A stretch of 58,340 nt of DNA from Patescibacteria group bacterium (GTDB taxonomy: Bacteria > Patescibacteriota > Patescibacteriia > SG8-24). The translations under genes and the position numbers were made by a program. Location of the stretch: the NCBI GenBank assembly GCA_034716415.1, contig JAYEJB010000071.1, forward strand, positions 1 to 58,340, read 5' to 3'. Positions 1 through 35,080 of this stretch are shown in pieces; position 1 is the first letter of the stretch; the number at the start of each line of letters is the position of its first letter. Below the pieces are notes generated by a model. It saw nothing but the letters and a program-made list of their open reading frames with translations. It was not told the origin of the DNA and did not search any database.

Positions 1-60
1 AGCCTGTTTCTTGCGAGAAACAGGCTGCCTGTTTTTGCCCCAAACTGTGCATAAGACATC
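1..60. repeat. Family-A ~94-bp palindromic element, right two-thirds (truncated by window edge)
   Basis: Sequence ...TGTTTCTTGCGAGAAACAGGCTGCCTGTTTTTGCCCCAAACTGTGCATAAGACATC matches the copies at 13884, 30657 and 34985. Confidence 0.9.
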
Positions 61-135
61 TACCTGACTATATATAAAGGAAGGGGGGGTCTAGAAGCAC
101 AGAAGTATTTTCCTAAATTCCTATACTCCCCAACT

Positions 136-1116
136 TCAAAACCCCACGTACTCGATCTCTTCCGTCAACTGCACGACGCTGTGTGTCATGTCGCGGACCT
201 TCGACTTCACCGAGCCGATGAGCGCGATGACGTCGTTCGCTATCGCGTCCCCGTCGTTGATGAAGAAGTTGGCGTGCTTCTCGCTGATGCTGACCTTGCC
301 GACCTTCAACCCCTTCAACTGCGCTCGGTCGATGATCCAGCCGGCCGGTATGGTCCCGTTCAACGAAATCGGAATCTCCTCCTCCTTATTGAGATCGAGA
401 TCCTTACGCAACTCCTCAAGATCTTCCGACGCGCCCGGCTTCCAGTTCCTGAAGATGCTGCCCGCGGTCGGATATTCGATAGGCTGATTGTCCTTCTTCT
501 TCCGTAGCATCTCTTTCAGGCTATCACGTAACGCATCCGCGTCCTCGGCCTGCTCCAAAGACAGCACCACCGACAGGATGACCCATCCACCCTCCTTCTT
601 GAAGACGCTCTCGCGATAGCCGAACGCGCATTCCTCGCGCGTGAAATCTTTCGTCTCCCCGTTCTTGACCGCGCGCACGGTCTCGACCACTTCGGCGGTC
701 CCGCCGTCCCACATGCTGGCGTTGCCGCGGACCGCGCCGCCCAATGTCCCAGGTAACGCGATCGCCCATTCGAATCCCTTGAGTCCGGCCTCTGCGGTCT
801 GTAGCGCGACGAACGCCGACGGCGTGCCCGCTTCCACTTTCACTTTCGTTCCTTCGATCGTTATTCCTCGATTCGCCATCTTGATGATCAGTCCCGGATA
901 TCCCTCATCGGAAATCAGGACGTTCGAACCGCCGCCGAGGATGTAATACTCTACGCCGGATTCGCCCGCCGCCCGTACCGCGGACGCGGCCTCGTCACCT
1001 GATTTGGCGACAAAAAAATACTTGGCCGGACCACCGATGCGATACGTCGTGTGCTGCGCCAACGGTTCGTTCTCGCGCACCTCCGGTGAGATTTTACTGC
1101 GCAGTTCTTCGATCAT
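136..1116 (-). CDS. murB: UDP-N-acetylenolpyruvoylglucosamine reductase
   Basis: Motifs HTTYRIGGPA, LGGGSNVL, PGTLGGAVRGNA, FGYRES, AGSIFRN, SEKHANF; directly downstream of murC. Confidence 0.97.
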   Translation of the reverse strand: MIEELRSKISPEVRENEPLAQHTTYRIGGPAKYFFVAKSGDEAASAVRAAGESGVEYYILGGGSNVLISDEGYPGLIIKMANRGITIEGTKVKVEAGTPSAFVALQTAEAGLKGFEWAIALPGTLGGAVRGNASMWDGGTAEVVETVRAVKNGETKDFTREECAFGYRESVFKKEGGWVILSVVLSLEQAEDADALRDSLKEMLRKKKDNQPIEYPTAGSIFRNWKPGASEDLEELRKDLDLNKEEEIPISLNGTIPAGWIIDRAQLKGLKVGKVSISEKHANFFINDGDAIANDVIALIGSVKSKVRDMTHSVVQLTEEIEYVGF

Positions 1117-1126
1117 ATGGCCATGA

Positions 1127-2530
1127 TTATTCCTCCCGACCTACGAGCCTGTAGGCGATCTTATAGACGTCGCCGGCACCCATGACAAGCACGATATCTC
1201 CGGGACGCATTAAGTTTACCGTTTCTTCGTATGCCGCGTCTACACTTCCGGTGTCGGAGACATGCCTTTCGACCCCGCGCTCCTTGTCGCGTGCCGCCAC
1301 GGCGTCGCGTAGATCCCCGGAACTGACAGCTCCGTCTTCAGCCTTCTCGCGACCGGCGACATCGAATATCTCCGGGATGATGACGGTATCCGCCCCGTCC
1401 ATGGCGAGTACGAACCTGTTGAACAGCTTTTTCGTGCGGCTGTGGTGATGCGGCTGGAACACCAGGATGATCTGTCGGTCCGGATAGAACTCGCGCGCCG
1501 CCTGCAGGGTACTCGCGACTGCGGTCGGGTGATGTCCGTAATCGCTGATGATGAGCGCACCGTCATGTTCACCAATGACCTCGAACCGCCGCCAGATGCC
1601 GGTGTACGCATCGAGCGCTTTATGGATCGCGTCCTCCGAAGCACCTAATTCCGCCGCCGCCGTTATCGCCGCGGCCGCGTTGTGGACATTGAACCGTCCG
1701 GGTACGCGCAGAGTGAACCGACATGACCGCTCGCCGCGACAATCCATCTCGAACTCCTGCCGCCCGTTCTCGCAGATGATCGCGGTCACCTTGTAGTCAG
1801 CATCGTTCTCCGATCCGTATGTCACCTTCTTCCCGTCGGTCCGCAGTTCGTCGGCACAGGCCGAGTCGTCGGCGTTCAGCACGACCGATCCACCCTTGCC
1901 CACCTGCCCAAGAAATTCCTGGAACGTCTCCACTATGTGCTTACGATCACGATAGAAATCGAGATGCTCTTCCTCGATGTTCGTGATGACCGCCATGAAC
2001 GGATGGAACTTGAGCATGTTGGCGTGGTGCTCGCAGGCTTCAACGACCAGGAGATCGCTCTGTCCCAATCTTAGGTTACCGTCCGGAAACGACGGCACCT
2101 TCGAACCGACAATGACGGTCGGATCCATGCCGGCTTCAATAAGCATCATCCCGAGCATGGCGGTCGTGGTGCTCTTGCCGTTCGTGCCGCTGACCGCGAT
2201 CGTCCGCTTGTCCTTGGAGTATTCACCGAGGAACTCGAAATAGGTCAGATTACGGACACCGCGCTTCCTGATCTCGACCAACTCCGGATTATCGTCCGGT
2301 ACCGCGTCCGTGCGCACGACCAGATCGATACCCTCCGGTACGTTCGCCACATCATGTCCGATACGCACCTCGGCGCCCATGTTCACGAGATTCTCGATCA
2401 TGTCTCCGGTCGCGATATCCGAACCGCTGACTTCGATACCACTCTTCAATAACAACTTGGCCACAGCCGATATACCGATACCGCCGATACCGATGATGTG
2501 AGCTTTTTTCGTTTTCTCGACTATTCCCAT
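1127..2530 (-). CDS. murC: UDP-N-acetylmuramate--L-alanine ligase
   Basis: Motifs HIIGIGGIGISA, GSD, AVSGTNGKSTTT, VEACE, TNIEEEHLD, GIWRRFE, DYGHHPT, FQPH, MGAGD. Confidence 0.96.
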   Translation of the reverse strand: MGIVEKTKKAHIIGIGGIGISAVAKLLLKSGIEVSGSDIATGDMIENLVNMGAEVRIGHDVANVPEGIDLVVRTDAVPDDNPELVEIRKRGVRNLTYFEFLGEYSKDKRTIAVSGTNGKSTTTAMLGMMLIEAGMDPTVIVGSKVPSFPDGNLRLGQSDLLVVEACEHHANMLKFHPFMAVITNIEEEHLDFYRDRKHIVETFQEFLGQVGKGGSVVLNADDSACADELRTDGKKVTYGSENDADYKVTAIICENGRQEFEMDCRGERSCRFTLRVPGRFNVHNAAAAITAAAELGASEDAIHKALDAYTGIWRRFEVIGEHDGALIISDYGHHPTAVASTLQAAREFYPDRQIILVFQPHHHSRTKKLFNRFVLAMDGADTVIIPEIFDVAGREKAEDGAVSSGDLRDAVAARDKERGVERHVSDTGSVDAAYEETVNLMRPGDIVLVMGAGDVYKIAYRLVGREE

Positions 2531-2618
2531 ACGCGCATAATATACATCATTATTCGAAACCCTGAAAGATAAAAAATAAGGGATTTGTAATCCCTCATTG
2601 ATGAGACCGATACGGACA

Positions 2619-3716
2619 CTAGTCCTTCTTCACCGTTTCGGGCGGGAAGAAGATGTTCTTGACCAGCGCGCGACGATCACCGTAGATCGGTCCGAGCACG
2701 GCTGTCTTCAACAGCCAACGCCGCTTCTCGTCGGTGACAGCCAGGTCGATGCGCTTCACGTCACCATCACAGACATACTTTGGAATCGCGCCGCAATCCG
2801 GGAAAAGTTCCATCAACCGATCGCCGGGAGTGACTCCGCTACCGCGGAGCCCGGGTGTCAAGTCGATGAATGACTTCTCAAACACGACGTGTCCCACGCC
2901 CCGACTGACTCTGGCCCTGGCATAGGTGATGGTGGTCATGTCGAGCACGGCCCGCCGATAGGCCCCAATGAACCTTACGACAGCTACCTCTGGCGCATGC
3001 ATGCAGAACTCGGCCAACTGACCGAACTGCGTCGTCGTCAGCAGACAGGCACGGTGCTTGTAGTTCCCGGGGTCGGTGAAGATCCTCTCCGGGAACCTCT
3101 CGGACTCGGCCGCCTTCTTCCAGAAGCTGTCCATGACACCTTCGGAAAGCTTGGTCGCGAACAGGATGCCTCGCAACACGCGGGTCGAAATCTTAGGCAT
3201 GACGCCTTCGATCCCGTTGCCCATGTCCTCGAACCATTCGACAAACATTCCGGCACAGCCGGACGCGGTCCGGTTCAGGGCGCGAGCGAAATGTGCCACA
3301 TCCTTGCCGCGCACACTCTCAATATGATCACGTACGGACCACAACGCACAGGCTGTCAGGATGACCGAGCGGACCTCTCGCGGTACGCCGTAGAGCATCC
3401 TCGGATCGGGCACACCCTCATCTGTCGGATACGCGTGCCGCTCCTCGGACTCCCAGCCATCAGGCCGCTTATCCAACGGAACATACTCACGCGTCAGGCA
3501 ACTGCACAGTATGCGTGACCCATACCTGTATCCGAGGTTCCGGCGTTCCATGATTAGCGCGCAGAATGCCTGAACCGCACCGAAAGCATCCTCGTAAACC
3601 TCGTCGAACTTTTCCTGGTCCCACTTGTCTCGAATCGTGCGAACTCCTGCCCGGATCGCATTGGTCAGCTTGAGCTTCAGCTCATAATCTTGCTGATCCT
3701 CAAATCGATCTGACAT
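2619..3716 (-). CDS. Hypothetical protein (~365 aa)
   Basis: Long ORF; start chosen at MSDRF after GGAGGAGAGAGGA; no family recognised. Confidence 0.75.
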   Translation of the reverse strand: MSDRFEDQQDYELKLKLTNAIRAGVRTIRDKWDQEKFDEVYEDAFGAVQAFCALIMERRNLGYRYGSRILCSCLTREYVPLDKRPDGWESEERHAYPTDEGVPDPRMLYGVPREVRSVILTACALWSVRDHIESVRGKDVAHFARALNRTASGCAGMFVEWFEDMGNGIEGVMPKISTRVLRGILFATKLSEGVMDSFWKKAAESERFPERIFTDPGNYKHRACLLTTTQFGQLAEFCMHAPEVAVVRFIGAYRRAVLDMTTITYARARVSRGVGHVVFEKSFIDLTPGLRGSGVTPGDRLMELFPDCGAIPKYVCDGDVKRIDLAVTDEKRRWLLKTAVLGPIYGDRRALVKNIFFPPETVKKD

Positions 3717-3860
3717 TCTCCTCTCCTCCTCCGTGTTTTCCCCCAAAACGTGAAATGAACGATAGATTGACATTATGCACATTCAGCGGATATGGCAAGG
3801 GTCGAGGACGACCATTGCTTGCCGAGAGGCAATATGTTATTCTGCCCTTTCAGAAGGCTT

Positions 3861-5576
3861 ATGTCAAGCATCAAGACGAAAACCGAAATCGCCGAAGTCA
3901 TGGTCAGAGAGGCCATAGCGCGCCACGTCACCGAGAGAGACGTTTTTTTTCGTGTGGTGCAGGATGTCGCGAGGAGTCATTGCGTACAGATGCCGCCCGT
4001 ACGGAAACTCCTGGCCGCATACCGCGCCGTCATCCGCGAGAATCCGAAGCTGGCCGACACGGCGATCGAAACGTTCCTGACCAAATCGAGGGTGCGATCG
4101 CTATCCGGCGTCGCGGTGGTGACAGTGCTGACCAAGCCGTATCCCTGTCCGGGCAAGTGCGTCTATTGCCCGGACGACCGCTCGATGCCGAAGAGCTACT
4201 TACCGAACGAACCGGCCGCGATGCGCGCTGCCGCGCACAAGTTCGATCCGTTCGGGCAGGTGACACAACGCTTGCGGGCCTTGACCGCAAACGGCCACCC
4301 GGCCGACAAGATAGAACTGATCGTGAAAGGCGGTACTTGGTCGGCTTACCCTCGGAAGTATCAACAGGAATTCATCAAAGACTGTTTCGATGCCTGCAAT
4401 TCGTTCGGTGGACGGAAATCGACATCAGACGATCTGGCAGGCGCGCATAAGAAGAATGAAAGCGCGCGATATCGCGTCATCGGACTGACGCTCGAGACAC
4501 GTCCCGACCGCATCACACCGCAAGAGATAGTCCAATTACGGGAACTCGGCTGCACACGCATCGAGATGGGCGTGCAGTCGGTCGATGACGCCATCCTCAA
4601 GACGTGCCGTAGGGGGCACGACAGCGCCGCCGTGGTGAAAGCGACGCGACTCCTGAAGGACGCCGGTTACAAATGCGACTACCACATGATGCCGCAGCTA
4701 CCCGGCGCGTCGCCGAAATCCGACGAACGACAACTGAAGCGCATCTTCGAAGACCCTGATTATCGTCCGGACATGCTCAAGATCTACCCGTGCACGGTGC
4801 TGAAAAAATCACCGCTACACCGCTGGTGGAAGGACGGACGCTACAAGCCATATCCCAATTCACGACTCAAAGAGGTCATCATCGCCGCCAAACAGGCCGT
4901 ACCGCGCTACTGCCGTATCAGCCGTATCATCCGTGACATTCCGTCGGATTCCATCTGCGCCGGAAATCCGGTGACAAGCCTGCGGCAGGTGATACAACGA
5001 GAGATGAAAGAACGTGGTCTGTCCTGTGACTGCCTGCGTTGCCGGGAGATCGGCCGCAAACTTCAAGAAAATCCTAACCTCGCTCACTCCCCCACTCTGA
5101 CATTTGACGACACTTATGAAGCTTCGGGTGGCGAAGAGCACTTCTTGAGTATTGAAGACCCGGGTAGGCAGGCTGTTTTTGCCTTCTGTCGATTAAGATT
5201 GCCGGCAACTGTTTCATGCCTCGAACAATCAACGACGGCTTCACTCACTCCCCCATCCCCGGTTACGGGGCAAAACGCGGGAAAACGGGGCAAAACGGGA
5301 CAAGACGAACTTAACGTGAACCACCCCTCCCCATCCACGGCCTTTCTCCGCGAACTCCACACTTACGGTCATCTCGTGCCGATCGACAAAAAGAATCCCG
5401 ACGCCGCTCAGCACAAAGGTTACGGCAAACGATTGATGGCTGAAGCCGAACGCATCACCCACAAAGCCGGCTTCCGCAAGATGGCGGTCATCAGCGGTAT
5501 CGGTGTGCGTGCCTACTACCGTAAACTCGGTTATCGGTTGCGGGATACGTATATGGTTAAAACGCTACGGGAGTAA
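3861..5576 (+). CDS. elp3: Elp3-family radical SAM/GNAT tRNA wobble-uridine modification enzyme
   Basis: Motifs SLSGVAVV, CPGKCVYCP, GGTW, TLETRPD, EMGVQS, HMMPQLPG, KIYPC, CDCLRCRE, RELHTYG, QHKGYG, ISGIGVRAYYRKLGY. Confidence 0.95.
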   Translation: MSSIKTKTEIAEVMVREAIARHVTERDVFFRVVQDVARSHCVQMPPVRKLLAAYRAVIRENPKLADTAIETFLTKSRVRSLSGVAVVTVLTKPYPCPGKCVYCPDDRSMPKSYLPNEPAAMRAAAHKFDPFGQVTQRLRALTANGHPADKIELIVKGGTWSAYPRKYQQEFIKDCFDACNSFGGRKSTSDDLAGAHKKNESARYRVIGLTLETRPDRITPQEIVQLRELGCTRIEMGVQSVDDAILKTCRRGHDSAAVVKATRLLKDAGYKCDYHMMPQLPGASPKSDERQLKRIFEDPDYRPDMLKIYPCTVLKKSPLHRWWKDGRYKPYPNSRLKEVIIAAKQAVPRYCRISRIIRDIPSDSICAGNPVTSLRQVIQREMKERGLSCDCLRCREIGRKLQENPNLAHSPTLTFDDTYEASGGEEHFLSIEDPGRQAVFAFCRLRLPATVSCLEQSTTASLTPPSPVTGQNAGKRGKTGQDELNVNHPSPSTAFLRELHTYGHLVPIDKKNPDAAQHKGYGKRLMAEAERITHKAGFRKMAVISGIGVRAYYRKLGYRLRDTYMVKTLRE

Positions 5577-5703
5577 CGGAGAATGGTGACGGGGCAAGAT
5601 GGGGCAAACGTGGAAAAACGGATTAAGATAATTCCGTCCTGCCCCGTTTGCCCCAACACCCCTCGACTGCTAGCGTGAAAACGAGTCCCAAAGGAGGGCC
5701 GGT

Positions 5704-5988
5704 GTGGCGTATTACGTCATAAACGAAACGACCCTCCCGCTGAGGGTCATAGCATGGCGGGTTAAAGGCGAACCCGCCATTAAGCTCTTACTGGCAGTCA
5801 CGACCAACAAGGCCCCATACGCGATGATCGATATCACGCTCCGGAAGAACGTGCATCAAAAAGCACGCCTCCCTGGCATCCACAAAATGGTCAAGGTCGA
5901 TGTCGTAAACAGGGCCAGGGTGACGACCAAGCTGGTCACAAACAAGAAAGGAGTCAGGTTCCTGTACATCAAAAGCATCCTCAACTAG
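5704..5988 (+). CDS. Hypothetical protein (94 aa, basic, beta-rich)
   Basis: GTG start after AAAGGAGG; co-oriented with the next small ORF. Confidence 0.6.
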   Translation: MAYYVINETTLPLRVIAWRVKGEPAIKLLLAVTTNKAPYAMIDITLRKNVHQKARLPGIHKMVKVDVVNRARVTTKLVTNKKGVRFLYIKSILN

Positions 5989-6002
5989 AAAGGAAGTGAC
6001 CT

Positions 6003-6302
6003 ATGGCGTTCCTATACGTCAAGAACGATACGGGACAGCCGGTCAGGGTCACCGTCCTGCAGGACAGAATGAGACCCGGATCGATGCCGCTGATACTGTC
6101 GTCCGTGCCGGTCGAGCCCAACGAGAACGAGCGCATCGTCTTCGAGTGCGTGGTCTCGACTCCGGCCTACCCCAAAGTCATGATCCCGATATCGCTTACC
6201 GCCGTGGGGTTCGATGTGAAGAACACGGTTGGGGCAAGCTATAGACAGGGGTCGGACAACAACAATAACCAGTATCTGGTGATTGTCGGGTTCTTCTCCT
6301 GA
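6003..6302 (+). CDS. Hypothetical protein (99 aa, beta-sandwich-like pattern)
   Basis: ATG after AAGGAAG; N-terminus [12 protein letters not shown] resembles YVINETTLPLRV of the upstream ORF. Confidence 0.65.
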
Positions 6303-6363
6303 AGTCCGCATGTGTATCGCGGGCTTTTTTCATCTATGTATCCGTGCTAAAATCGCCTTATCT

Positions 6364-12390: not shown

Positions 12391-13851
12391 ATGCCTGAAG
12401 AGAGAATTCCACCGCAGAATATCGACGCGGAACAATCGTTACTCGGCGCCTTGCTTATAGACAAGGAAGCCTTGCTTAATGTCGCCGATCTGGTGCGTCC
12501 GGAAGATTTCTACCGGCAGGCGCACACGGACATCTTCTGCACGATGCTCGAACTGCACGGCAAGCGCGAGCCGATCGACATGACGACCTTACCGAACAGG
12601 ATGGACGAATTGAAACTTCTGGAAGGGGCCGGCGGCCGCACGTATCTGACCGAACTGTCGGCCATGGTCGCGACCGCGGCGCACGTTGTACACTACGCCG
12701 ACATCATCCAGAAGAAGTCCACCCGGCGCAGGATGCTGGCCGCCGCGGGAGAGATCATCTCCCTGGCGCACGAGGAGACCGAGGATGTGGACGGCCTCCT
12801 GGACGATGCCGAACAGAGACTGTCCAACGTCTCGAAGAGAAACCTGAAAACCTCGTTCACGCCGATCAAGGAGGCGCTCGACAATGCGTTCGAGCGCATC
12901 GATGACCTGCACAAACAGGACGGAAAGATGCGCGGCGTACCGACCGGCTACCGGGACCTCGATTCCCTCTTAGCCGGACTGCAGCGCTCGGACCTGGTAA
13001 TCCTCGCCGCGCGTCCGTCGGTCGGTAAGACCAGTTTCGCGCTGGACATCGCCAGGAACGCGGCAGTCATCGGCAAAATGCCGGTCGGACTCTTTTCGCT
13101 CGAGATGTCAAAGGAGCAGCTCGTAGACCGCATGCTTTGCGCGGAAGCGGGTGTCGACCTGTGGCGCATGCGCACCGGACAACTCAAGGACTCCGGCGAT
13201 GACAGCGATTTCTCGCGTATCGGCCACGCCCTGGGCAAACTGTCCGAAGCGCCGATCTTCATCGATGATACGGCGAACGTCAACGTCATGGAAATCCGCA
13301 CCAAAGCGCGCCGCCTGCAGAGCGAACACGGGCTCGGCCTGCTGGTCATCGACTATCTGCAGCTGATGGAATCGCGCCGCACCCGGGCGAGCGACAACAG
13401 GACGCAGGAAGTCGCGGAGATCACGCGTGCCCTGAAGGGTATCGCGCGCGAACTGGACATTCCGGTGCTGGCGTTGTCGCAGCTGTCGCGTCTCACCGAA
13501 CAGTCCAAACCTGCCATCCCGAAACTGTCGCATTTACGTGAGTCCGGTTCCATCGAACAGGACGCGGATGTGGTGCTGTTCCTGTATCGCAAAGCCACGG
13601 ACAAGAACTATAAGCTGGAGGAGATTCCGCTCGACGAAAGGTATACCGCGGAAGTGCACGTGGCCAAGCACCGCAACGGCCCATGCGGAGTAGTCAAGAT
13701 GTTCTTCGACGAAGCACGCGTCAGTTTCCGCGACCTCGACCGAAAGCACGCACCGAGCACTCCGCCACCGGAACACGGTCAGCAGGCGACTCCGGTGCAC
13801 GCGGCGATGCCGGTGCAGGGAGCACCGAAAGATAATGAGCCGAAGTTCTGA
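12391..13851 (+). CDS. dnaB: Replicative DNA helicase
   Basis: Motifs PPQNIDAEQSLLG, AARPSVGKT, FSLEMS, IDYLQLM, LSQLSR, LRESGSIEQDAD, AKHRNGP; no intein seen. Confidence 0.98.
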   Translation: MPEERIPPQNIDAEQSLLGALLIDKEALLNVADLVRPEDFYRQAHTDIFCTMLELHGKREPIDMTTLPNRMDELKLLEGAGGRTYLTELSAMVATAAHVVHYADIIQKKSTRRRMLAAAGEIISLAHEETEDVDGLLDDAEQRLSNVSKRNLKTSFTPIKEALDNAFERIDDLHKQDGKMRGVPTGYRDLDSLLAGLQRSDLVILAARPSVGKTSFALDIARNAAVIGKMPVGLFSLEMSKEQLVDRMLCAEAGVDLWRMRTGQLKDSGDDSDFSRIGHALGKLSEAPIFIDDTANVNVMEIRTKARRLQSEHGLGLLVIDYLQLMESRRTRASDNRTQEVAEITRALKGIARELDIPVLALSQLSRLTEQSKPAIPKLSHLRESGSIEQDADVVLFLYRKATDKNYKLEEIPLDERYTAEVHVAKHRNGPCGVVKMFFDEARVSFRDLDRKHAPSTPPPEHGQQATPVHAAMPVQGAPKDNEPKF

Positions 13852-13883: not shown

Positions 13884-13977
13884 GATGTCTTATGCACAGT
13901 TTGGGGAAAAAACAGGCTGCCTGTTTCCCGCAGGAAACAGACTGTCTGTGTTTTCCCCAAACTGTGCATAAGACATC
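13884..13977. repeat. Family-A 94-bp palindromic element
   Basis: GATGTCTTATGCACAGTTTGGGG...CCCCAAACTGTGCATAAGACATC with internal AAACAGGCTGCCTGTTT. Confidence 0.92.
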
Positions 13978-14342: not shown

Positions 14343-14442
14343 TTTGTCATTGCGAGGAGTGAAGCGACGCGGCAACCCCGTACGGACAGCAATAACCACC
14401 GGGATTGCCGCGGTCGCCTGCGGGCTCCCTCGCAATGACAAA
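14343..14442. repeat. Family-B REP-like palindrome (TGTCATTGCGAG...CTCGCAATGACA)
   Basis: Terminal inverted repeats shared with copies at 24849, 38274 and 41159. Confidence 0.9.
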
Positions 14443-14449
14443 TATTGAA

Positions 14450-14890
14450 ATGCATAACTTCCCCGAACCGATAGAGCGGCTCATCGAGGATCTCTGCCCC
14501 TCCTGCCCCTTCTCCCACCCCCGCTCCTCCCCGCCCAACAATGACATGAGATAAATGCGTGATTTTCCAGAACAAATCAAGAGACTTATCGAGGAGCTCG
14601 GCCCTTCGACTCCGCTCAGGACCTCCCCGCCCAACAATGACATGAGATAAATGCGTGATTTTCCAGAACCAATCAAGAGACTCATCGAGGAGCTCGGCCC
14701 TTCGACTCCGCTCAGGACCTCCCCGCCCAACAATGACATGAGATAAATGCGTGATTTTCCAGAACCAATCAAGAGACTCATCGAGGAGCTCGGCCCTTCG
14801 ACTCCGCTCAGGACCTCCCCGCCCAACAATGACATGAGATAAATGCGTGATTTTCCAGAACCAATCAAGAGACTTATCGAGGAGCTCGGC
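14450..14890 (+). repeat. Tandem array duplicating the recR start region (3 x 96-bp units plus one 105-bp diverged unit)
   Basis: ATGs at 14450, 14555, 14651, 14747 and 14843, each later ATG directly preceded by TAA; a 78-nt segment is repeated four times, separated by CCTTCGACTCCGCTCAGG. Confidence 0.95.
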
Positions 14891-18827: not shown

Positions 18828-18918
18828 TGTTTTGTCCACAGCTTGGCAAGAAAACACAGGCGGTCTGTTTCGCACCGAAACAGGCTGCCTGTTTTTCTGC
18901 CAAGCTGTGGACAAAACA
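18828..18918. repeat. Family-A variant palindrome (91 bp)
   Basis: TGTTTTGTCCACAGCTTGGCA...TGCCAAGCTGTGGACAAAACA with the same internal AAACAGGCTGCCTGTTT module. Confidence 0.85.
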
Positions 18919-21445: not shown

Positions 21446-21602
21446 GAATTGTTGACATAAAAAATTAGTATTCGTGAAGGGATGTTTTATCCCCAATTCA
21501 ACGTTAATACTGACAGGCACTAGTACCTGTCAGTATTCAGTGAAAACTGGGGATAAAACAAAAAAACCAGCCACCAGGCCGGACAACCTCCCGCTTCCCG
21601 CT

Positions 21603-24730: not shown

Positions 24731-24848
24731 ATATCGATAGGCTCATTATAGAGCAGGAAGCGGGAAGCGGGAAGCGGGAGGCAGGATGTAGGAAGACCTC
24801 ATTTAGACCTCCTGCCTCAAGCCTCCCGCTTCGTGCCCTTCTCAATAT

Positions 24849-24956
24849 TTGTCATTGCGAGCGAACGCGCCTGCCTGCCCCTGCCTGCCGGCAGGCAGGG
24901 GCAGGCAGGAAGCAATCCCGACGGGATTGCCGCGGCCTTCGGCCTCGCAATGACAA
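24849..24956. repeat. Family-B palindrome carrying a 40-bp nested insertion
   Basis: TGTCATTGCGAG...CTCGCAATGACA; 24870-24909 is the 20-mer CCTGCCTGCCGGCAGGCAGG inserted into the centre of a second copy of itself. Confidence 0.9.
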
Positions 24957-25135
24957 GAAAAATGAGATTCCGCAATTCCCACCATAATCCCTCAAGCCAG
25001 GCTTGAAGCCTGGCTTGAAATAATTAAGAGGGTGACTCCTCAGCTTCAACAAAAAAACGCCCCCTGGGCGCCATTTCTTCTCCCGCTTTTCCCGCTTCTG
25101 CCCCTTCCCTGCCTGCCGGCAGGCAGGTCCCGCTA

Positions 25136-26852: not shown

Positions 26853-26896
26853 CGAATTCGCGCTTTGAAGTAAAAAATGAACCGTTCAGGGTTATC

Positions 26897-26932
26897 CCCA
26901 CCTTTCCCCACTTCCTTATTATCATACACCAC
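26897..26932 (-). promoter_or_regulatory. Putative MraZ-binding GTGGG direct repeats
   Basis: CCCAC at 26897 and 26907 (10-bp period) plus CACCAC at 26927, upstream of mraZ. Confidence 0.6.
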
Positions 26933-27037
26933 TGAACACCTTAGGTCAACATTATTTGGCTTTGTTATCCACAAAAAAGAAAGACGCGCATGTGATGCGC
27001 GTATACGGAGCGAATAGTACCTTAGGTCCTGTCGAAG

Positions 27038-28065: not shown

Positions 28066-28518
28066 CTATCGGAACCACAGCAATAGCGCAATTATCGCCT
28101 GACCGGACAGGCCAAGCCAGAGTGGCAGTCTGACACCGGTCAAACGATGCGCTTTCTTGTGTAAGGGTGTCAGGAAGCCGAATACGTTGCGTTTGAACAC
28201 CATCTCCATGCCGAACATGACGTCAGGCAGGATAGAACCCGCAACCACAGCGGCAAAGTGCCAATGAAAACCGACAGACATGGAGTACATCAGGAACGCG
28301 GCTGACATCACCGCAAAGTCTCCGGCGAAGAACGGTATCGCCCGCCGGACCGACCTGTCGCTCTCAAGCACCCAATCCCCTATCCGCTCGTCACCGTGCG
28401 GGATGGCGTCGCCGACGTAATGCAAAGCCCAACCGAGCGCGAACGCGGCGGCGGGATTGGTGATGCCGATGGCGGTGACGGCGGTGACGCCGATAGCAGA
28501 GTGGACGGTGAGAAACAT
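28066..28518 (-). CDS. Membrane protein, YdjM/DUF457-like metal-dependent hydrolase
   Basis: HSAIG, HYVGDAIPH, SILPD, LHKKAH; hydrophobic. Confidence 0.7.
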   Translation of the reverse strand: MFLTVHSAIGVTAVTAIGITNPAAAFALGWALHYVGDAIPHGDERIGDWVLESDRSVRRAIPFFAGDFAVMSAAFLMYSMSVGFHWHFAAVVAGSILPDVMFGMEMVFKRNVFGFLTPLHKKAHRLTGVRLPLWLGLSGQAIIALLLWFR

Positions 28519-28658
28519 ATATTAATCCGATTAACCGAGCGCTGGTACCAGGTTCTTCCTGTGTGAAAGTCGTATGACTTGTACACAGGAATGTACCTGG
28601 TACCCCTAGAAAGCACGTCACTCTTGGCACAGCTGTGCCAGAGCGAATGCGAAGCTTC

Positions 28659-29987
28659 CTAGGAGCGGTTGGGCTTGTGGGAGGACCCCCTGGTCCGCCG
28701 CAGCATTCGCCTCTTTCTGTGATAGCTAATCGCGAACCGATGAGCCTCGTCACGAACATGCTGTAACAACGGCTTGAACGCGTAGGTCAGCCGAGCCAGT
28801 TCGTTATCCTTCTTATCATACACCAGCTCGTCCTGCTTGCGATCGAAACCCTTGGCGATACCGACCAGCGGGATGTTAAGTCCGTTATCTTCAAGAACGC
28901 GCTTGGCGACATTTAACTGCCCTCTGCCTCCATCAATAAGAATAAGATCCGGCAATCGCCAACTTTCTCGCTTTCTCGCTCTTTCGCTCTCTTGCCCCTT
29001 CTCCCGCTTCTGCCCCTTCTGCCCCTTCACGCGCGCAAACCTCCTCCGCAACATCTCTTCAAGCATGGCGGTATCATTAGAACCCACCACCGTCTTGATC
29101 CTAAACTTGCGATACGCCGACTTCTTCGGCCGGCCATCCTCAAAGACGACCATACTACCGACCGCGTCCTGCCCGCTGATGTTTGATATATCGTATCCTT
29201 CGACGCGACCGAACACGTCGATGAACTGCTGCAGCTCCGCGTCGTCACGTTTCATGATCGCCATATCGCGGATGTGTTCGAGCGCCCAAAGACGGTCACG
29301 GTACGATGCCGCCACTTCGAAATCCTTACGCTCGGCCGCGGCTTTCATGTTGCGCTTCAACGATCGCACCACCTCCCCCCTCTTCCCGTCGAAGTAACGC
29401 ATCAACCCGCGGATGATGACCTTGTAGTCGCGTGATGAGATGTTCCCCGTGCAGACGCCGGCGCACTGACCGAGATGCACATAAAAACACGGACGACCGC
29501 GGTTCGGTTTGCAGGTCGACCATGGGAACGCCTTGCGCAAGGCATCGAGCGACGCCTGCACCGCACCGGTCGACTTGAACGGGCCGAACGTCTTCAGGAA
29601 CCGTTTCTTCGACGTGCGCACCAGTTCATGTTCACGGATGAGCACCGGACGCGGATAATCTTCGCGCGTAAACGCCAGGTAGACCCGGCTCTTGTCGTCC
29701 TTGTCGCGGACGTTGTACGGCGGCTGGAGTTTCTTGATGTTCTTCGCCTCGAGAATGAGCGCCTCGACCGCGGTCGGTGTCTCCTCCCAGTCGATCTCCC
29801 GGATCTTCTTCACCATCTGCGCGATGCGCGCGTCCGCCGGTCGCGTGAAGTAGCTCGAAACACGCGTGCGTAAGGATGTCGCCTTACCCACGTACATTAT
29901 CTTGCCTGCCGCATCCTTCATGAAATACACCCCTGGCCGCGGCGGCAGTTCATCCTTCTTCAGTTTTACGTTCTCCGGAATCGCCAT
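28659..29987 (-). CDS. uvrC: Excinuclease ABC subunit C (no C-terminal HhH domain)
   Basis: PGVY..YVGKA GIY-YIG, UVR domain, EGYDISN, PDLILIDGGRGQ, RDEAHRFA. Confidence 0.92.
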   Translation of the reverse strand: MAIPENVKLKKDELPPRPGVYFMKDAAGKIMYVGKATSLRTRVSSYFTRPADARIAQMVKKIREIDWEETPTAVEALILEAKNIKKLQPPYNVRDKDDKSRVYLAFTREDYPRPVLIREHELVRTSKKRFLKTFGPFKSTGAVQASLDALRKAFPWSTCKPNRGRPCFYVHLGQCAGVCTGNISSRDYKVIIRGLMRYFDGKRGEVVRSLKRNMKAAAERKDFEVAASYRDRLWALEHIRDMAIMKRDDAELQQFIDVFGRVEGYDISNISGQDAVGSMVVFEDGRPKKSAYRKFRIKTVVGSNDTAMLEEMLRRRFARVKGQKGQKREKGQESERARKRESWRLPDLILIDGGRGQLNVAKRVLEDNGLNIPLVGIAKGFDRKQDELVYDKKDNELARLTYAFKPLLQHVRDEAHRFAISYHRKRRMLRRTRGSSHKPNRS

Positions 29988-29998
29988 ACGCGCCTGGC

Positions 29999-30059
29999 AT
30001 TATGGCAGTAAACAATACGATTGTCCATGCTTGACACTCACGTCATAAATTGATATTCT
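29999..30059. promoter_or_regulatory. Back-to-back promoters for uvrC and the orphan at 30082
   Basis: Minus strand TGGACA-N17-CATAAT; plus strand TTGACA-N17-TATTCT. Confidence 0.6.
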
Positions 30060-30081
30060 GCGCCTTCGAGAAAGGAAAAGA

Positions 30082-30546
30082 ATGACCGATGCAAACCAGG
30101 GGTTCGAACAGCTTAGCGTAAGCGAAGAGGATGAATTCCTGTTGGGCGGCAAGAGGCTGTGGCATCGTACGAACGGAGACATCGGAGCCGTGTTCGAATT
30201 CATCGACGCGGCCAGAAAAATCGTCCGCGTCGTGCGCAAAAGCAGCATCGAGCCACACAAATCGCCGACAATGGAAGTTCTTCAGCTCGTCGATCGCAGC
30301 ACCGGTTGCACGGCGGAGATAACTGCCGATTGCTTTCGACGCAACCGCTACGACTGGATGATACGCCGCGATTCCGACCTAACCGCCGAGTACGAAGACA
30401 ACGACAAGACGACCGAAGCGGTCAAAAAGCGGATCGACGAGATCATGACGCTGAGAGCGGCGCTGCAGAAAGAGCTGGAGCTAGTGAACAGCGAGAACGG
30501 CCTCCTGCGCGCTAAGTTCGCTGGAGCGATCACAAAAGGCCTGTAG
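30082..30546 (+). CDS. Hypothetical protein with C-terminal coiled coil
   Basis: 154 aa; AAGGAAAAG before ATG; own promoter and terminator. Confidence 0.7.
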   Translation: MTDANQGFEQLSVSEEDEFLLGGKRLWHRTNGDIGAVFEFIDAARKIVRVVRKSSIEPHKSPTMEVLQLVDRSTGCTAEITADCFRRNRYDWMIRRDSDLTAEYEDNDKTTEAVKKRIDEIMTLRAALQKELELVNSENGLLRAKFAGAITKGL

Positions 30547-30656
30547 CACAACCGCTCTTGGTAGCGTCCCCAACTGACCGCACTGCGGTCTTTTTTTATA
30601 CAATGTAGCCCTTCGACTCCGCCACGCTCCGCTCAGGGATTATTTATTTATGAGAT

Positions 30657-30750
30657 GATGTCTTATGCACAGTTTGGGACAAAAACAGGCAGCCTGTTTC
30701 TCGCAAGAAACAGACTGCCTGTTTTTGTCCCAAACTGTGTATAAGACATC
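30657..30750. repeat. Family-A 94-bp palindromic element
   Basis: GATGTCTTATGCACAGTTTGGGAC...GTCCCAAACTGTGTATAAGACATC. Confidence 0.92.
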
Positions 30751-30924
30751 TACTGTTTACTTCAAAAAAATAGTGCCTGAGCTTAAAATTTTGGGGACTG
30801 TCCCCGATAAGACTGGCTTGGGGACACTTCTCAAGATTAAAACTTCTGAACAAGCCTTGCCTGTTCCGCTCCCATGCGATATCATTCCCCGCGTCATATC
30901 AATAATAATCATCTCACTTACTAT

Positions 30925-32397
30925 ATGTCTCTACGTAGAGGCCTTCTCGCTCTCGGCGCGGTCGGTGCCGGCATCCTGATGCCAGCGATCGCGTTCGCCA
31001 CAGAGCACGCGGAAGAAGTCGGCCACGTAGCTGAAGAAGCGGGTCATGCCGCCGAGTCCGGCCATGGCTTGCACGCCATCACGCTGATCTTCTTCCTGTT
31101 CATCATGCTGATGTTCGCCCGCATCGGCGCGCTCATGGAGCGTATCGGCCAGCCGGCCGTACTGGGTGAACTGTTGATGGGTGTGCTGTTAGGCGCGCTC
31201 GCTTTCTGCCCGGGTCTCGGGTTCATCAACGAACTCAAGAGCACGGAATTCATCGCGCTCATCGCCGAGATCGGTGTCATTATCCTGCTGTTCCGCACCG
31301 GACTCGAGTCCAACCTGCGCGAAATGAAGAGCGTGGGCGTGAAAGCGGTCATGGTCGCTATCGTCGGGGTGGTCCTGCCGTTCGTCGGCGGCTACTTCGC
31401 CTCCAAACTGTTGATTCCCGGCCTCGACATCAACACTTACCTGTTCATCGGCGCGACACTGACCGCGACTTCGGTCGGTATCACCGCGCGCGTGTTCAAG
31501 GATCTGAACATGCTGTCCTCCAAGGAAGCCAAGATCGTCCTGGGCGCGGCGGTGTTCGATGACATATTAGGCCTGTTGATCCTGGCCGTGGTGGCGGGCA
31601 TGGTTTCCGGCGGTAGCGTGTCCCCCGGTGAGATCGCCTGGATTTCGGCCAAGGCGTTCCTGTTCCTGGTGATCTCGGTCGCGCTCGGTCAATTGTTGGC
31701 TAAGAGAGTCAGCTCGGCCTTCTCTAAGATCCACAGTGGCGTGGGCATGAAGATGGCTTTGGCCCTGCTGTTCTGCGGCATCTACGCTTACGGCGCGGCC
31801 GCGCTCGCCGGCTTAGCGCCGATCGTCGGTGCGTTCGCCGCCGGTCTAGTGCTCGACCCGTTGCACTTCGATGACTTCATCGCTCCGGCCATCTCCCAGA
31901 AACTACGTGGCTGGGCGGCCAAACTGAACGGGTCCGACGTGGCAACCGAAGAGGTGAAAGAAGAGATGCACGCCGAAGCGGACCACGAGGAACACATGCA
32001 CGTCGAGAATCTGGTCGAACAGGTCGGCTGGTTCTTCATGCCCATCTTCTTCGTCTACACCGGTCTGCAAGTCAATCTGGAGACGTTCGCCGAACCCAAA
32101 GTGCTGATCATCGGCCTGGCGCTCACGGTCGTGGCGTTCATCGGTAAGATCGCCGCCGGTTGGGTGGCCGGCAAGGGCGTCAACAAACACATCATCGGTT
32201 TCGGCATGGTGCCGCGCGGCGAGGTCGGTCTGATCTTCGCCAACGTCGGTAAACAGTTGGGGGTGGTGTCGGACGAGACGTTCTCGATCGTGGTGATCAT
32301 GGTTATTCTATCTACCCTGCTCACACCGCCGATCCTGGGCGTGCTGATCAAGAGACAGCGGCAACAGAAAGCCGACGCAGGGGCATCTGCCGAATGA
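30925..32397 (+). CDS. Cation:proton antiporter (CPA2, NapA/KefB-like)
   Basis: GQPAVLGELL, AEIGVIILLF..GLE, TATSVGIT, AAVFDD, GAFAAG, PIFF, PRGEV; His/Glu-rich N-terminal linker. Confidence 0.93.
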   Translation: MSLRRGLLALGAVGAGILMPAIAFATEHAEEVGHVAEEAGHAAESGHGLHAITLIFFLFIMLMFARIGALMERIGQPAVLGELLMGVLLGALAFCPGLGFINELKSTEFIALIAEIGVIILLFRTGLESNLREMKSVGVKAVMVAIVGVVLPFVGGYFASKLLIPGLDINTYLFIGATLTATSVGITARVFKDLNMLSSKEAKIVLGAAVFDDILGLLILAVVAGMVSGGSVSPGEIAWISAKAFLFLVISVALGQLLAKRVSSAFSKIHSGVGMKMALALLFCGIYAYGAAALAGLAPIVGAFAAGLVLDPLHFDDFIAPAISQKLRGWAAKLNGSDVATEEVKEEMHAEADHEEHMHVENLVEQVGWFFMPIFFVYTGLQVNLETFAEPKVLIIGLALTVVAFIGKIAAGWVAGKGVNKHIIGFGMVPRGEVGLIFANVGKQLGVVSDETFSIVVIMVILSTLLTPPILGVLIKRQRQQKADAGASAE

Positions 32398-32458
32398 AGA
32401 CTCCCCGGGCTCAAGCCCTGCCTGCCGGCAGGCCGTGGATTTCTGCGGGGGTGGATAA
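32393..32458. repeat. Family-F repeat (copy also at 56374-56423) interrupted by a CCTGCC element
   Basis: AATGAAGACTCCCCGGGCTCAAGC[CCTGCCTGCCGGCAGG]CCGTGGATTTCTGCGGGGG versus the empty copy AATGAAGACTCCCCAGGCTGAAGCCCGCGGTGTTCTGCGGAGG. Confidence 0.8.
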
Positions 32459-32540
32459 TTGAATCCGGAAACCAAATAGGCGCGCCTTGACCGGCGCGTC
32501 TTTTGATGTTAAGCATCTATTGCAACGAGAGGATATACGG

Positions 32541-32933
32541 ATGAACAAAAAGGAACGCGAAGATGCCAAAAGGCTGGAGGATCCCGAATCTCTGACGCTG
32601 GAGATACAGGTCTTTACCATGACGGGCGACTACGACGCCGCTGTCGAAGGCTCGCAAGACATCGCCCAAAAGCGCGTAGCCCGGGGTAACAAGCTGCCAC
32701 TCGACGGTTTGGAGAAACACCGGGCACAGCTCGAAGAGTGGGGCTTCACCGTCGGCGAGCCGCTCGACCACCTGTTCACGGAAGTCGAATTGCCGGAAGG
32801 CTGGAGCTTCGTCCCGCACGACGACCACAACATGTACTGCGACATCCACGATCCGCAAGGCAGACAGTGTGGCACCGTTTTCTACAACAGTGCGCCATGG
32901 AACCAACGAGCCTGGTTCTCCCTGTCCGCCTGA
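32541..32933 (+). CDS. Conserved-looking hypothetical protein (130 aa)
   Basis: SD GAGGA; motif LEEWGF..LF..LPEGW..DH.M..D.QGR..FY. Confidence 0.75.
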   Translation: MNKKEREDAKRLEDPESLTLEIQVFTMTGDYDAAVEGSQDIAQKRVARGNKLPLDGLEKHRAQLEEWGFTVGEPLDHLFTEVELPEGWSFVPHDDHNMYCDIHDPQGRQCGTVFYNSAPWNQRAWFSLSA

Positions 32934-33048
32934 CACAAAAAAGAACTTACGGGTCCTCCTGGACCCCTTTTTATATGACAGGATTGACACATCCGCTGTC
33001 GCGTGCTAACGTATTCGGTCAGTCCACAAACAAGGGAGGAGAGATTGA

Positions 33049-33561
33049 ATGTGGAACGATCTTTCAACGATTGCGGCATTCCTGGGAAGCGCTTTCCTCG
33101 TCATGGTTCTGGTGCTCTGGGTATTTGAACGCAGGAGGAGGGAGCGGATCCAAGTCATCAAAAAGGAGGTGTCAGATCGACTCGCCCGGATGGGACTGTT
33201 GACCAAATCTATGAATCGCGCAAAGCGGAACAGGATCGGCCTGCACATCATCTGGATCCGTCGATGTGCTCGGCAAAACAACCTGCCCCTCACCCAGCTC
33301 GGCACTTCCGAGAAGAACCTCGACAGGTTCCGCAGTATGATGGAACACGGATCGAGCAGCCGTCCAGCACTCGCGAAGATGCCCGCTGGATTCGCTCCGG
33401 CCGGTTCCTGGAGGTTCGGGGATGAGAAAGATGAAGTCGTAAAAGCCGCGTCCGAACCCAAGCTTCCTCAAACGACCGAGGAACTGTTCAGTGGCCTGAC
33501 GGAGAACGATCTCCTGAAGCACATCGACATGAACTTGAAAGCGATACGTCTTACGGCATAG
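33049..33561 (+). CDS. Single-pass membrane hypothetical protein
   Basis: N-terminal transmembrane helix then RRRR; promoter TTGACA(32984)-N17-TAACGT; SD GGAGG. Confidence 0.8.
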   Translation: MWNDLSTIAAFLGSAFLVMVLVLWVFERRRRERIQVIKKEVSDRLARMGLLTKSMNRAKRNRIGLHIIWIRRCARQNNLPLTQLGTSEKNLDRFRSMMEHGSSSRPALAKMPAGFAPAGSWRFGDEKDEVVKAASEPKLPQTTEELFSGLTENDLLKHIDMNLKAIRLTA

Positions 33562-33705
33562 ACCCCTGACGGGGCTCAAGAGCGTGACTACGGTCGCGCT
33601 TTTTCATTCATCTGCTTCAGACAGATCCGCCGAGCTCTATTTGACAACCTTGACCTGTAACCGACAAGATGATATAGTCTGACATCAGATGAGAGGAGAA
33701 TTCGG

Positions 33706-33879
33706 ATGGAACCCACTGCTGAAGCGCTGGAACTGGCGCTTTACTTCTGCCTTATCGGCATCAACGCGATGGCCTTCGCTGTCACCATGTGGCGAAGACC
33801 CGCGAATCGCCTCGCGCAGAGGCACATACACGCTGACAACCGTCGCCTGCGTCGCAAGTTGTCGGTACAGGAACCATAG
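33706..33879 (+). CDS. Small membrane protein, 57 aa (not in ORF track)
   Basis: MEPTAEALELALYFCLIGINAMAFAVTMWRRP...; SD AGGAG; promoter TTGACC(33650)-N17-TATAGT. Confidence 0.7.
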   Translation: MEPTAEALELALYFCLIGINAMAFAVTMWRRPANRLAQRHIHADNRRLRRKLSVQEP

Positions 33880-33894
33880 AAAGGAAGGAACAAC

Positions 33895-34026
33895 GTGGAG
33901 ACACTACTTCTGATCGCTGGGGGCGTCATCGTCGCCATCTTCGTCGGAGTGGCAGCCGTGTTCGTCACTCGCCTGGACACCACGAAGGTGAACAGGGCGA
34001 TCAACAAGACGAACAGGTCCAAGTAG
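33895..34026 (+). CDS. Small membrane protein, 43 aa (not in ORF track)
   Basis: GTG start after AAGGAAGG; METLLLIAGGVIVAIFVGVAAVFVTRLDTTKVNRAINKTNRSK. Confidence 0.7.
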   Translation: METLLLIAGGVIVAIFVGVAAVFVTRLDTTKVNRAINKTNRSK

Positions 34027-34112
34027 GACCTTCGGCAGACGACGTAAACGATCGGCGCGGCGCGAAAGCCCGCGCTCTTTTTTTATTGAAGAAGCAATCA
34101 AAAATGTCGATA

Positions 34113-34220
34113 CCCCCAAAGTGCCTGTCACCCTCTGCCCCCAAAGTGCCTGTCACCCTCTGCCCCCAAAGTGCCTGTCACCCTCTGCCCCCAAAGTGCC
34201 TGTCACCCTCTGCCCCCAAA
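34113..34220. repeat. Perfect 25-bp tandem repeat, 4.3 copies
   Basis: Unit CCCCCAAAGTGCCTGTCACCCTCTG. Confidence 0.95.
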
Positions 34221-34323
34221 AGGAGCAGGCATTAACAGGCTGCGGCACGGCGGCATCGGGGTTGACAATAAGGCTAAAATATGCTATCCTGTAGAAAGGT
34301 TCTTTACGGGAAAGGAGGTATCT

Positions 34324-34854
34324 TTGGAGACGGTAGTGCCACTCCTATGGGTGGTGTCGGTCTGTCTCGTGGCGTTCCTGGTCGTCAAAACGGTGACCAT
34401 CGTCCGGAGCGGCAAAAGAGTCTCTTGGGAGAACGAGGTCAGTGCGATAAATTCGGATATCCTCCGATGCGTCGACTCCTCGAACAAGGAGCAGGCAACA
34501 CTGCTTCTACGCCGACTGCGTTTCATGCTCGAAAAGCATGAAGTCGACGTTCCCGGGGTGAACTTGGAGCTGCTGAAGATGTTGGTCGACAACGTTGAGG
34601 CCAAAGCTCCACGTCGGAAGGACACCACCCAACCCAAAAAGGAGCCAGACCCCGCGGAAGTCGATGCTGAAATTGAGTTTGATCTCAATGAACTGACTGA
34701 AGGGTCCAAGCTTGCGGACGTACAACTGCGAAACGACCTGCGTTTGACGCGGGACCGCCTTCGTAAGGCAATGCAGTTGACGCTCGGTTTACGACGCGAA
34801 CAGCTGGACATCCAGTCGGTCATCGAGAGACTTCTCAAACAGCTCGACGAATAG
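34324..34854 (+). CDS. Single-pass membrane protein with C-terminal coiled coil
   Basis: TTG after AAGGAGG; promoter TTGACA(34262)-N17-TATCCT; N-terminal transmembrane helix. Confidence 0.78.
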   Translation: METVVPLLWVVSVCLVAFLVVKTVTIVRSGKRVSWENEVSAINSDILRCVDSSNKEQATLLLRRLRFMLEKHEVDVPGVNLELLKMLVDNVEAKAPRRKDTTQPKKEPDPAEVDAEIEFDLNELTEGSKLADVQLRNDLRLTRDRLRKAMQLTLGLRREQLDIQSVIERLLKQLDE

Positions 34855-34984
34855 CTCACGCTCCCCACTCGGGCACGGACCACCAACACACTACGGTCTG
34901 TGCCCATTTTTTATCCACAAAAATAGTCAGGAAGCACCGAGTAGCTCTACCTGACACTTTCTGAGTGTTTTTGTGGATACGGCA

Positions 34985-35080
34985 GATGTCTTATGCGCAG
35001 TTTGGGACAAAAACAGGCAGCCTATTTCCCGCAGGAAACAGACTGTCTGTGCTTTTGTCCCAAACTGTGCATAAGACATC
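34985..35080. repeat. Family-A palindromic element (96 bp)
   Basis: GATGTCTTATGCGCAGTTTGGGAC...GTCCCAAACTGTGCATAAGACATC. Confidence 0.92.

Follow-up and report, generated by a model that had tools for sequence, protein, structure and literature searches.

Box-ended palindromes in a Patescibacteria contig as probable REPIN-like repeats of a RAYT-like Y1 transposase

The DNA analysed here (the window) is one entire contig of 58,340 bp from a member of the Patescibacteria (candidate phyla radiation), assembled from a brine metagenome. It carries a family of 94-bp palindromes whose ends resemble DnaA boxes. We conclude, with a probability of about three in four, that these palindromes are non-autonomous hairpin repeats similar to REPINs (doublets of repetitive extragenic palindromes, REPs, forming hairpins), spread by a Y1 (HUH) transposase similar to RAYTs, the tyrosine transposases that accompany REPs. 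A Y1 gene bracketed by palindromes of this family was found in five related contigs (L006, L023, L025, L028 and L029).

REPINs and their RAYTs are the best-studied long-lived, vertically inherited "resident" mobile DNA. To our knowledge, such systems are known almost only from Proteobacteria. A system of this type would now be found in the reduced genomes of ultra-small Patescibacteria.

Results

Palindromes in the window

The first-pass annotation of the window had listed five copies of the element, and all five are present. Copy c0 (positions 1-60, minus strand) is the right-hand 60 nt of a 94-bp element and lies 75 nt past the 3′ end of murB (136-1116, minus). Since the window is an entire contig starting at position 1, c0 was cut by the assembly and not by biology. 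Copy c1 (13884-13977, plus) is a full element between dnaB and ybaB, 32 nt past the stop of the former and 68 nt ahead of the latter. The variant copy (18828-18918, minus), with TTGTCCACA ends, is located between the terminator of a gene for a 750-aa protein and an mraY-like (Glycos_transf_4) gene. The best-preserved copy is c2 (30657-30750, plus), with boxes at 30663-30671 and 30736-30744 and 17-nt palindromes at 30683-30699 and 30708-30724. Copy c3 (34985-35080, plus) is 96 bp long, lies between convergent genes 28 nt past the uvrA stop, and abuts another box-ended palindrome.

This neighbour of c3 (34906-34980) has the ends TTATCCACA and TGTGGATA (TTTTATCCACA-type) around an unrelated centre. 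A further palindrome (21483-21560), just past the terminator of a Clp-like gene, has GTTTTATCCCCA ends and a CTGACAGG...CCTGTCAG centre. No strand is assigned to either. By their sequence, both are members of the same superfamily of box-ended hairpins with other centres.

The layout described earlier also held. It reads GATGTC-TTATGCACA, a linker, AAACAGGCWGCCTGTTT, a 6-nt centre, a second AAACAG module, a linker and TGTGCATAA-GACATC, and the centre of the variant is indeed shorter, at 5 nt. The core pattern AAACAGRCWGYCTGT has 16 matches in the window against 0.00 expected, and the DnaA-box consensus TTATNCACA has 10 against 0.63 expected. Searching the window with blastn-short gave no further copies, and the region from 35 to 58 kb is empty of them. 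All window copies are intergenic, each located past the 3′ end of one or more genes (murB, dnaB, the 750-aa gene, a 154-aa gene and uvrA). As single-stranded DNA, each copy is predicted to form a long hairpin of −39.5 to −48.4 kcal/mol, with z values of −12 to −17 compared with shuffled sequences.

Architecture of the element

A search with the core 20-mer identified seven contigs of one Joint Genome Institute metagenome (Ga0265297) with elements of the same build; 10 of the 17 loci it returned were unrelated, being chance matches or other repeats. We aligned 15 full elements from the window and these seven contigs in one orientation (109 columns). The alignment resolved three tiers. The first, GTYTTAT-N-C-M-CAGTT, is the conserved end of 15 nt; the DnaA-box-like 9-mer lies within it, and its outer block G-T-Y-T-T-A-T-N-C-M-C-A-G is nearly invariant. 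The second is a stem of ~9 bp whose letters vary from copy to copy while the arms are always complementary. The third is a nearly invariant core, consisting of an A-run, AAACAGGC-W-GCCTGTTTC, a variable loop of 4-9 nt, GAAACAGAC-W-GTCTGT and a T-run. This core is made of two inverted 17-nt palindromes, each unit being self-complementary (AAACAGGC-W-GCCTGTTT). The first-pass annotation had proposed comparing TTATNCACA and TGTTTC/GAAACA with the linkers, and in this alignment the former are by far the more conserved.

The two arms pair in 97% of cells, and compensatory change, with both sides altered, was found in 18 of 23 outer-stem pairs. None of 500 shuffles reached the observed values, and slid controls were only 38-48% paired. 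The variable positions within the 9-mer also covary between the two arms. The two 17-mers of an element differ from each other (GGC.GCC versus GAC.GTC), and each stays self-complementary; in the long hairpin these positions give a G-T pair and a C-A mismatch. From box to box, the elements of the related contigs measure 80-86 bp whatever their type of centre, as do the window copies with the AAACAG core. For the odd-centred window palindrome at 21483-21560 this distance is 70 bp.

The centre had earlier been described as parS-like, which would make it a loading site for ParB and SMC. The resemblance is confined to the half-sites TGTTTC...GAAACA. No window site, element centres included, comes within 3 mismatches of the 16-bp parS palindrome (TGTTTCACGTGAAACA; TGTTNCACGTGNAACA). 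Moreover, the spacer is 5-9 nt and variable in both length and sequence, the central CACGTG of parS is missing, and the centres of related elements that share these ends are quite different. The two inverted AAACAG palindromes account for the apparent half-sites, which are simply their inner ends, and the probability of a parS-like role is practically negligible. Integron attC sites and Xer/dif sites, compared by eye only, were also rejected, as their conserved boxes do not fit the ends.

Insertion sites in relatives

The DnaB protein of the window has close relatives named Patescibacteria, Parcubacteria and Uhrbacteria. Protein records contain no exact match to the murB or ybaB product of the window. 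Through DnaB homologues we obtained syntenic contigs of relatives whose DnaB identity to the window is 83% (L018, NCBI assembly GCA_975965465.1), 84% (L019/L020), 77% (L021), 76% (L031) and 73% (L032). In the window, c1 lies in a dnaB-ybaB spacer of 194 bp. In the relatives this spacer has no element and measures 25 bp (L018), 76 bp (L019), 5 bp (L021), 28 bp (L031) and 112 bp (L032). To judge from these empty spacers, c1 is an insertion.

Reads of the source sample (run X1) contain 92% of the words sampled. X1 also holds a second related population at about one third of the depth and ~87% nucleotide identity (window positions 13500-13844 and 35132-35500). In this population, which has a depth of ~7, the c1 site differs: 199 nt are exchanged for 89 others. 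X1 is a metagenome, and its depths mix related populations. Word depth in X1 is 17-24 for unique flanks and totals ~2,000-3,400 for the element, across 160-180 contigs.

No direct repeats flank the window copies or those of the related L006 locus. Half and nested elements exist: at L006 2804-3012 a full copy lies between a left half and a right half, and several X1 contigs have a new element that begins in or just past the central loop of another. Pattern scans of one genome per species did not find the element, and the terminal 22-mer had no match among metagenome or viral contigs.

Two sites hold an element in the window, L018 and L019. At the one that precedes the mraY-like gene, the box variant TTGTCCACA or TTATCCACA is kept across the three genomes and the centre is each genome's own. 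At the one after the Clp-like gene, TTATCCCCA ends are kept in all three, and the centres in L018 and L019 are other than that of the window palindrome at 21483-21560. L031 and L032 have only ordinary terminators at both sites and no boxes. The shared copies thus appear to date to the transposase-bearing clade and not to an older regulatory site. An ancient conserved site upstream of mraY was considered and is unsupported beyond the immediate clade, with plain terminators in L031 and L032.

The RAYT-like Y1 transposase

We trained a hidden Markov model on the RAYT/TIRYT alignment that Di Nocera et al. 2013 published as Additional file 5 (PMC3733652). It matched one open reading frame, L006 2193-2786, which encodes 197 aa (E = 7.6e-47). 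Residues 4-112 of this protein match Pfam Y1_Tnp (1.9e-15), and the NCBIfam model REP_Tyr_transpos scores 76.6 bits versus 24.2 bits for IS200. The protein carries the HUH motif NHVHL and the catalytic tyrosine in the context GIYVELNPV (GIYVELNPVRAG). When a profile from 30 homologues was compared with the PDB, the best solved relative was Escherichia coli TnpA-REP (4ER8, 2.3e-8). The AlphaFold model has a predicted local distance difference test score (pLDDT) of 87.6, and its top Foldseek match was again 4ER8 (E = 3.5e-8, template-modelling score 0.70), followed by the ISDra2 and IS608 transposases.

L006 is the most element-rich contig. Upstream of the Y1 gene it has a full copy and a right half; downstream, a further full copy lies between a left and a right half, and the two full copies are oppositely oriented. 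Orthologues of 64-67% identity were found on L023 (from the assembly of L018) and L025 (from the metagenome of L019). In L006, L023 and L025 the Y1 gene occupies one common syntenic slot, with the order ~400-aa gene, Y1 gene, ~600 nt of conserved non-coding DNA, ~1,195-aa gene, DUF5667 gene and sigma factor gene. These same neighbours in three relatives bear on vertical inheritance of the gene. All three Y1 genes are bracketed by inverted box-ended palindromes of the type of their own genome. More distant homologues (46-48% identity) on L028 and L029, from unrelated samples, are likewise bracketed. Their flanks are twin AAAGAGGC-W-GCCTCTTT hairpins with the boxes TGTGGATAA, TTATCCAC(A/T) and TTGTCCACA facing the gene.

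The conserved non-coding DNA directly downstream of the RAYT-like gene (L023:6700-7260, L025:6650-7430 and L026:3030-3700) is bounded by the terminator-like hairpins AAAAAGACACCCGC...GCGGGTGTCTTT and GCGGCTTTTTAGGCGCAGAAGCCGC. It has no Rfam match at gathering score and may be a structured RNA. Rfam gave no match for the window or for the surroundings of the transposase genes in the relatives.

Some relatives of TnpA-REP carry a domain like the C-terminal domain of DnaA (Quentin et al. 2018, PMC6006769). We considered such a DnaA-domain-fused transposase reading the boxes and rejected it for this clade. No DnaA_C or helix-turn-helix (HTH) tail was detected with Pfam to E 1, with the PDB profile search or with Foldseek; only Y1_Tnp was found, there was no DnaA chain among the hits, and the clade's enzyme has a short, distinct C-terminus of its own.

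The first-pass annotation had suggested that the palindromes might be a MITE (a miniature transposable element with inverted repeats) carrying DnaA or parS sites, and had proposed looking for target-site duplications or a cognate transposase. The mobile-element part of this suggestion agrees with the empty sites and with the Y1 gene flanked by the family in relatives. The element would be of the REP/REPIN-RAYT kind, however, and not a MITE with terminal inverted repeats and target-site duplications; no target duplication was found.

A classical MITE would be a deletion derivative of an insertion sequence (IS) of DDE type, whose terminal repeats hold a DnaA box as does the outside end of Tn5/IS50. 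The IS50 outside end carries TTATACACA, and some members of the family have exactly this 9-mer; the ends of the elements are conserved while the interiors vary. However, no copy is flanked by a target-site duplication, no DDE transposase is encoded in ~300 kb of related loci where a Y1 gene is flanked by elements five times, and the whole element, not just its tips, is maintained as a hairpin. A DDE-type origin is therefore very improbable.

DnaA-box-like ends

We collected 61 arms from 14 contigs. Within the 9-mer, positions 1, 2, 4, 6, 8 and 9 hardly vary, and the variation falls on position 3 (A/G), position 5 (C/G/A) and position 7 (A/C). The most frequent variant is TTATCCCCA (18/61, 30%), followed by TTATCCACA (16/61), TTGTCCACA (8/61), and TTATGCACA and TTATACACA (6/61 each). 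Conservation continues outside the 9-mer for 3 nt before it and 1-3 nt after it (G-3, T-2, Y-1 and G+10). Throughout the transposase clade the 9-mer stays the same, whereas the inner hairpin is fully changed; the hairpins seen were AAACAGGC.GCCTGTTT, AAAGAGGC.GCCTCTTT, AGTGCCACGCAGTTTTG and AGAACCACGTTGTTTTG. Most simply, the conserved end block would be the recognition tag of the clade, as GTAG is in classical REPs.

DnaA itself may also bind these putative boxes, most variants of which fit the consensus. The ends could then be genuine selected DnaA-binding sites, which is compatible with mobility. They would act as a dispersed sink like datA, or in helicase loading and restart like the A-site. 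In the window, 7 of the 8 main-family arms fit TTATNCACA, the variant copy having TTGTCCACA. Position 5, which varies, is left free in the consensus TT[AT]TNCACA (PMC6006769), and six other positions are nearly invariant. The 9-mer is kept among transposases that are only 46% identical, and a box variant is retained at the two orthologous sites despite replacement of the centre. There is also a precedent in E. coli, where one DnaA box suffices for DnaA-dependent loading of DnaB if it lies in the stem of a hairpin of single-stranded DNA (the "ABC primosome", PMC6127211).

However, the 18 arms with TTATCCCCA break position 7 of the consensus, and the conserved block runs past the 9-mer. Both arms always have the same variant, which is predicted by maintenance of the palindrome and not by independent selection for binding. 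No box site fixed at a locus independently of mobile DNA was found at the two shared sites, where the relatives at 73-76% DnaB identity (L031 and L032) have plain terminators; and the transposase is without a DnaA-like domain. We consider selected DnaA-binding sites unlikely, and slightly more so the stronger form in which the ends are the selected working part and host DnaA would bind ~200 boxes on ~100 hairpins in a ~1-Mb genome.

If this stronger form were true, it could operate in two ways. In one, the boxes would buffer free DnaA and be a transposon-borne equivalent of datA. In the other, the palindrome, when extruded or exposed on the lagging-strand template, would form an A-site-like hairpin that recruits DnaA and the replicative helicase. 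RAYT action would then be coupled to the fork, or the elements would supply restart sites to organisms whose restart machinery is minimal. Selection at the level of the host would be reflected in the constancy of the 9-mer and in its retention at centre-replaced sites. Should DnaA bind the tag, ~1% of a ~1-Mb genome would consist of transposon-borne initiator sites, and this would bear on replication control in organisms not yet grown alone.

GC skew is negative throughout the contig, so that neither origin nor terminus lies within the window. No DnaA gene or origin was found on any fetched locus.

One TTATCCCCA in the window, at 26892, is not part of an element. It lies within GTGGGG repeats that are downstream of the mraZ promoter and resemble the MraZ operator repeats. 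The promoter region (26860-27010, minus) has a terminator (27002-26984), TTATCCACA (26965), TTGACC-17-TATGAT and GTGGGG-N5-GTGGGG. The mraZ region of L032 is similar, with three GTGG(G) repeats.

Terminator-like core

The elements might instead be kept mainly as bidirectional intrinsic terminators or stabilisers of 3′ ends, with mobility being only their origin. The core has an A-tract, a GC-rich stem of 15-17 bp and a T-tract on both strands. In a consensus scan, the core of the variant copy was the strongest terminator-like site in 19 kb, and the centre of c1 was also listed. The location of all window copies past a 3′ end agrees with such a role. In the relatives, unrelated cores keep the form A-tract, stem and T-tract within 80-86 bp overall.

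On the other hand, an ordinary terminator already ends the gene before three copies (18948-18921, 21582-21567 and 30576-30590), and the conserved outer tag is left unexplained. Orientation follows the upstream gene in 5 of 5 cases in the window, but this rule was rejected when it failed in the related loci; in the wider set, orientation does not track the upstream gene. We regard retention mainly for termination as possible but doubtful. A secondary role of the core as a bidirectional terminator is plausible from its sequence.

Other repeats in the window

Several other repeats were noted. At 14430-14890 there is a 96-bp unit in four tandem copies (up to 99% identity), located immediately upstream of recR and extending over its start. 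An intergenic CT-rich family with the 9-nt units CTTCTCCCG and CTTCTGCCC is present at 25077-25128, 28989-29040, 44623-44674 and 54227-54278, and similar CT-rich tracts flank palindromes in L018 and L019. The 20-bp palindrome CCTGCCTGCCGGCAGGCAGG (24880-24913, 25094-25127 and ~32470) is a small repeat family of its own. At 34113-34237, at the start of a 227-aa open reading frame (34171-34854), the 25-bp unit CCCCCAAAGTGCCTGTCACCCTCTG is repeated perfectly in tandem, in ~4.5 copies. A dispersed repeat with TCCCTCGCAATGACAA or GTCATTGCGAG is found in both orientations at 14400-14448, 24842-24870, 38348-38372 and 41172-41249. No tRNA was found in the window.

Discussion

We propose that the 94-bp palindromes propagate through single-stranded DNA by the action of a single-copy, vertically inherited RAYT-like Y1 tyrosine transposase. 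Each arm would be one unit, made of a 15-nt tag, a pairing spacer free to vary and a 17-nt hairpin; two inverted arms and a short loop would make an element. The enzyme would read the small hairpin together with the conserved tag, as E. coli TnpA-REP reads the REP hairpin and GTAG. The core, with its A-tract, stem and T-tract, would also act as a bidirectional terminator when transcribed. The genome of the window would encode an orthologous transposase: a 730-nt X1 contig (depth 26.8) matches two conserved stretches of the Y1 gene, which shows that the sample of the window contains a Y1 homologue, with about the depth of the organism itself.

Several points weigh against this proposal. No transposase gene is encoded on the window contig, and the 730-nt contig is a match from the same sample only. 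The NCBIfam score of 76.6 is just below the curated cut-off of 80. The canonical GTAG/CGTC tag is absent from the window family, which has GTYTTATNCMCAG ~10 nt from the hairpin instead; something like the CGTC tag does occur in the cores of L018, L019, L023 and L025, as an unpaired CTAG-versus-CGTCG pair. The summed depth of the element in X1, ~100-170 times that of unique flanks, is a metagenome sum and not the copy number of one genome; the window density of 5 copies per 58 kb scales to ~90 per Mb, which is of similar magnitude. Mobility is read from insertion polymorphism, no excision or insertion event having been seen directly. Finally, two copies are orthologous across three genomes, which suggests slow turnover at some sites.

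In genome annotation, contig breaks, long palindromes and seeming "DnaA-box clusters" can be put down to this family where they might otherwise be taken for origins or parS sites. A tag that is constant across the clade and separable from a lineage-specific hairpin makes what a RAYT reads testable with oligonucleotides.

A search of the literature available to us gave no paper that joins RAYT or REPIN with Patescibacteria, and no link between REPs and DnaA boxes besides a remark in PMC6006769. Among known DnaA-binding elements, datA/DARS and the A-site (PMC6127211) are similar in that the 9-mers fit or nearly fit TTATNCACA, and the box of the A-site is also located in the stem of a single-stranded DNA hairpin. 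Unlike in these systems, the boxes here lie in a mobile palindrome, about one third of the arms deviate at position 7, and relatives that are slightly more distant do not have the element at the corresponding sites.

The TIRYT genes and their TIRtrons belong to TnpA-REP subclass 2.1, some members of which have a C-terminal domain like Bac_DnaA_C (PMC3733652, PMC6006769). The N-terminal and catalytic motifs of the enzyme described here align best with this group, and its gene is also bracketed by inverted repeats. In contrast, the DnaA_C/HTH tail was missing from the Pfam, PDB profile and Foldseek results, and the flanking repeats are not of the GGGGWSAS type but belong to an abundant dispersed family.

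The closest known systems are the REP/REPIN-RAYT REPtrons of Escherichia coli, Pseudomonas and Stenotrophomonas (PMC3116915, PMC3733652, PMC6006769; 4ER8), a REPtron being a RAYT gene bracketed by its repeats (PMC3733652, PMC6006769). REPs are described as typically lying past the 3′ ends of genes (PMC3733652). As far as its sequences go, the system described here has the defining features of REP/REPIN-RAYT except the canonical tag, the flanked transposase gene being seen in contigs of relatives. Both have many-copy extragenic palindromes, mostly past 3′ ends, in which two inverted hairpin units form one long hairpin with compensatory changes and without target duplication. Both have a syntenic Y1 HUH gene bracketed by the repeats, and in both the hairpin differs between enzyme lineages. 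The differences are the host phylum, here Patescibacteria; the enzyme, here of the RGNN-motif (TIRYT-like) branch with its short distinct C-terminus; and the three tiers with a fixed box-to-box distance of 80-86 bp. The tag here is a 15-nt block with a DnaA-box-like 9-mer in place of GTAG/CGTC, located ~10 nt outside the hairpin and itself part of the long outer stem.

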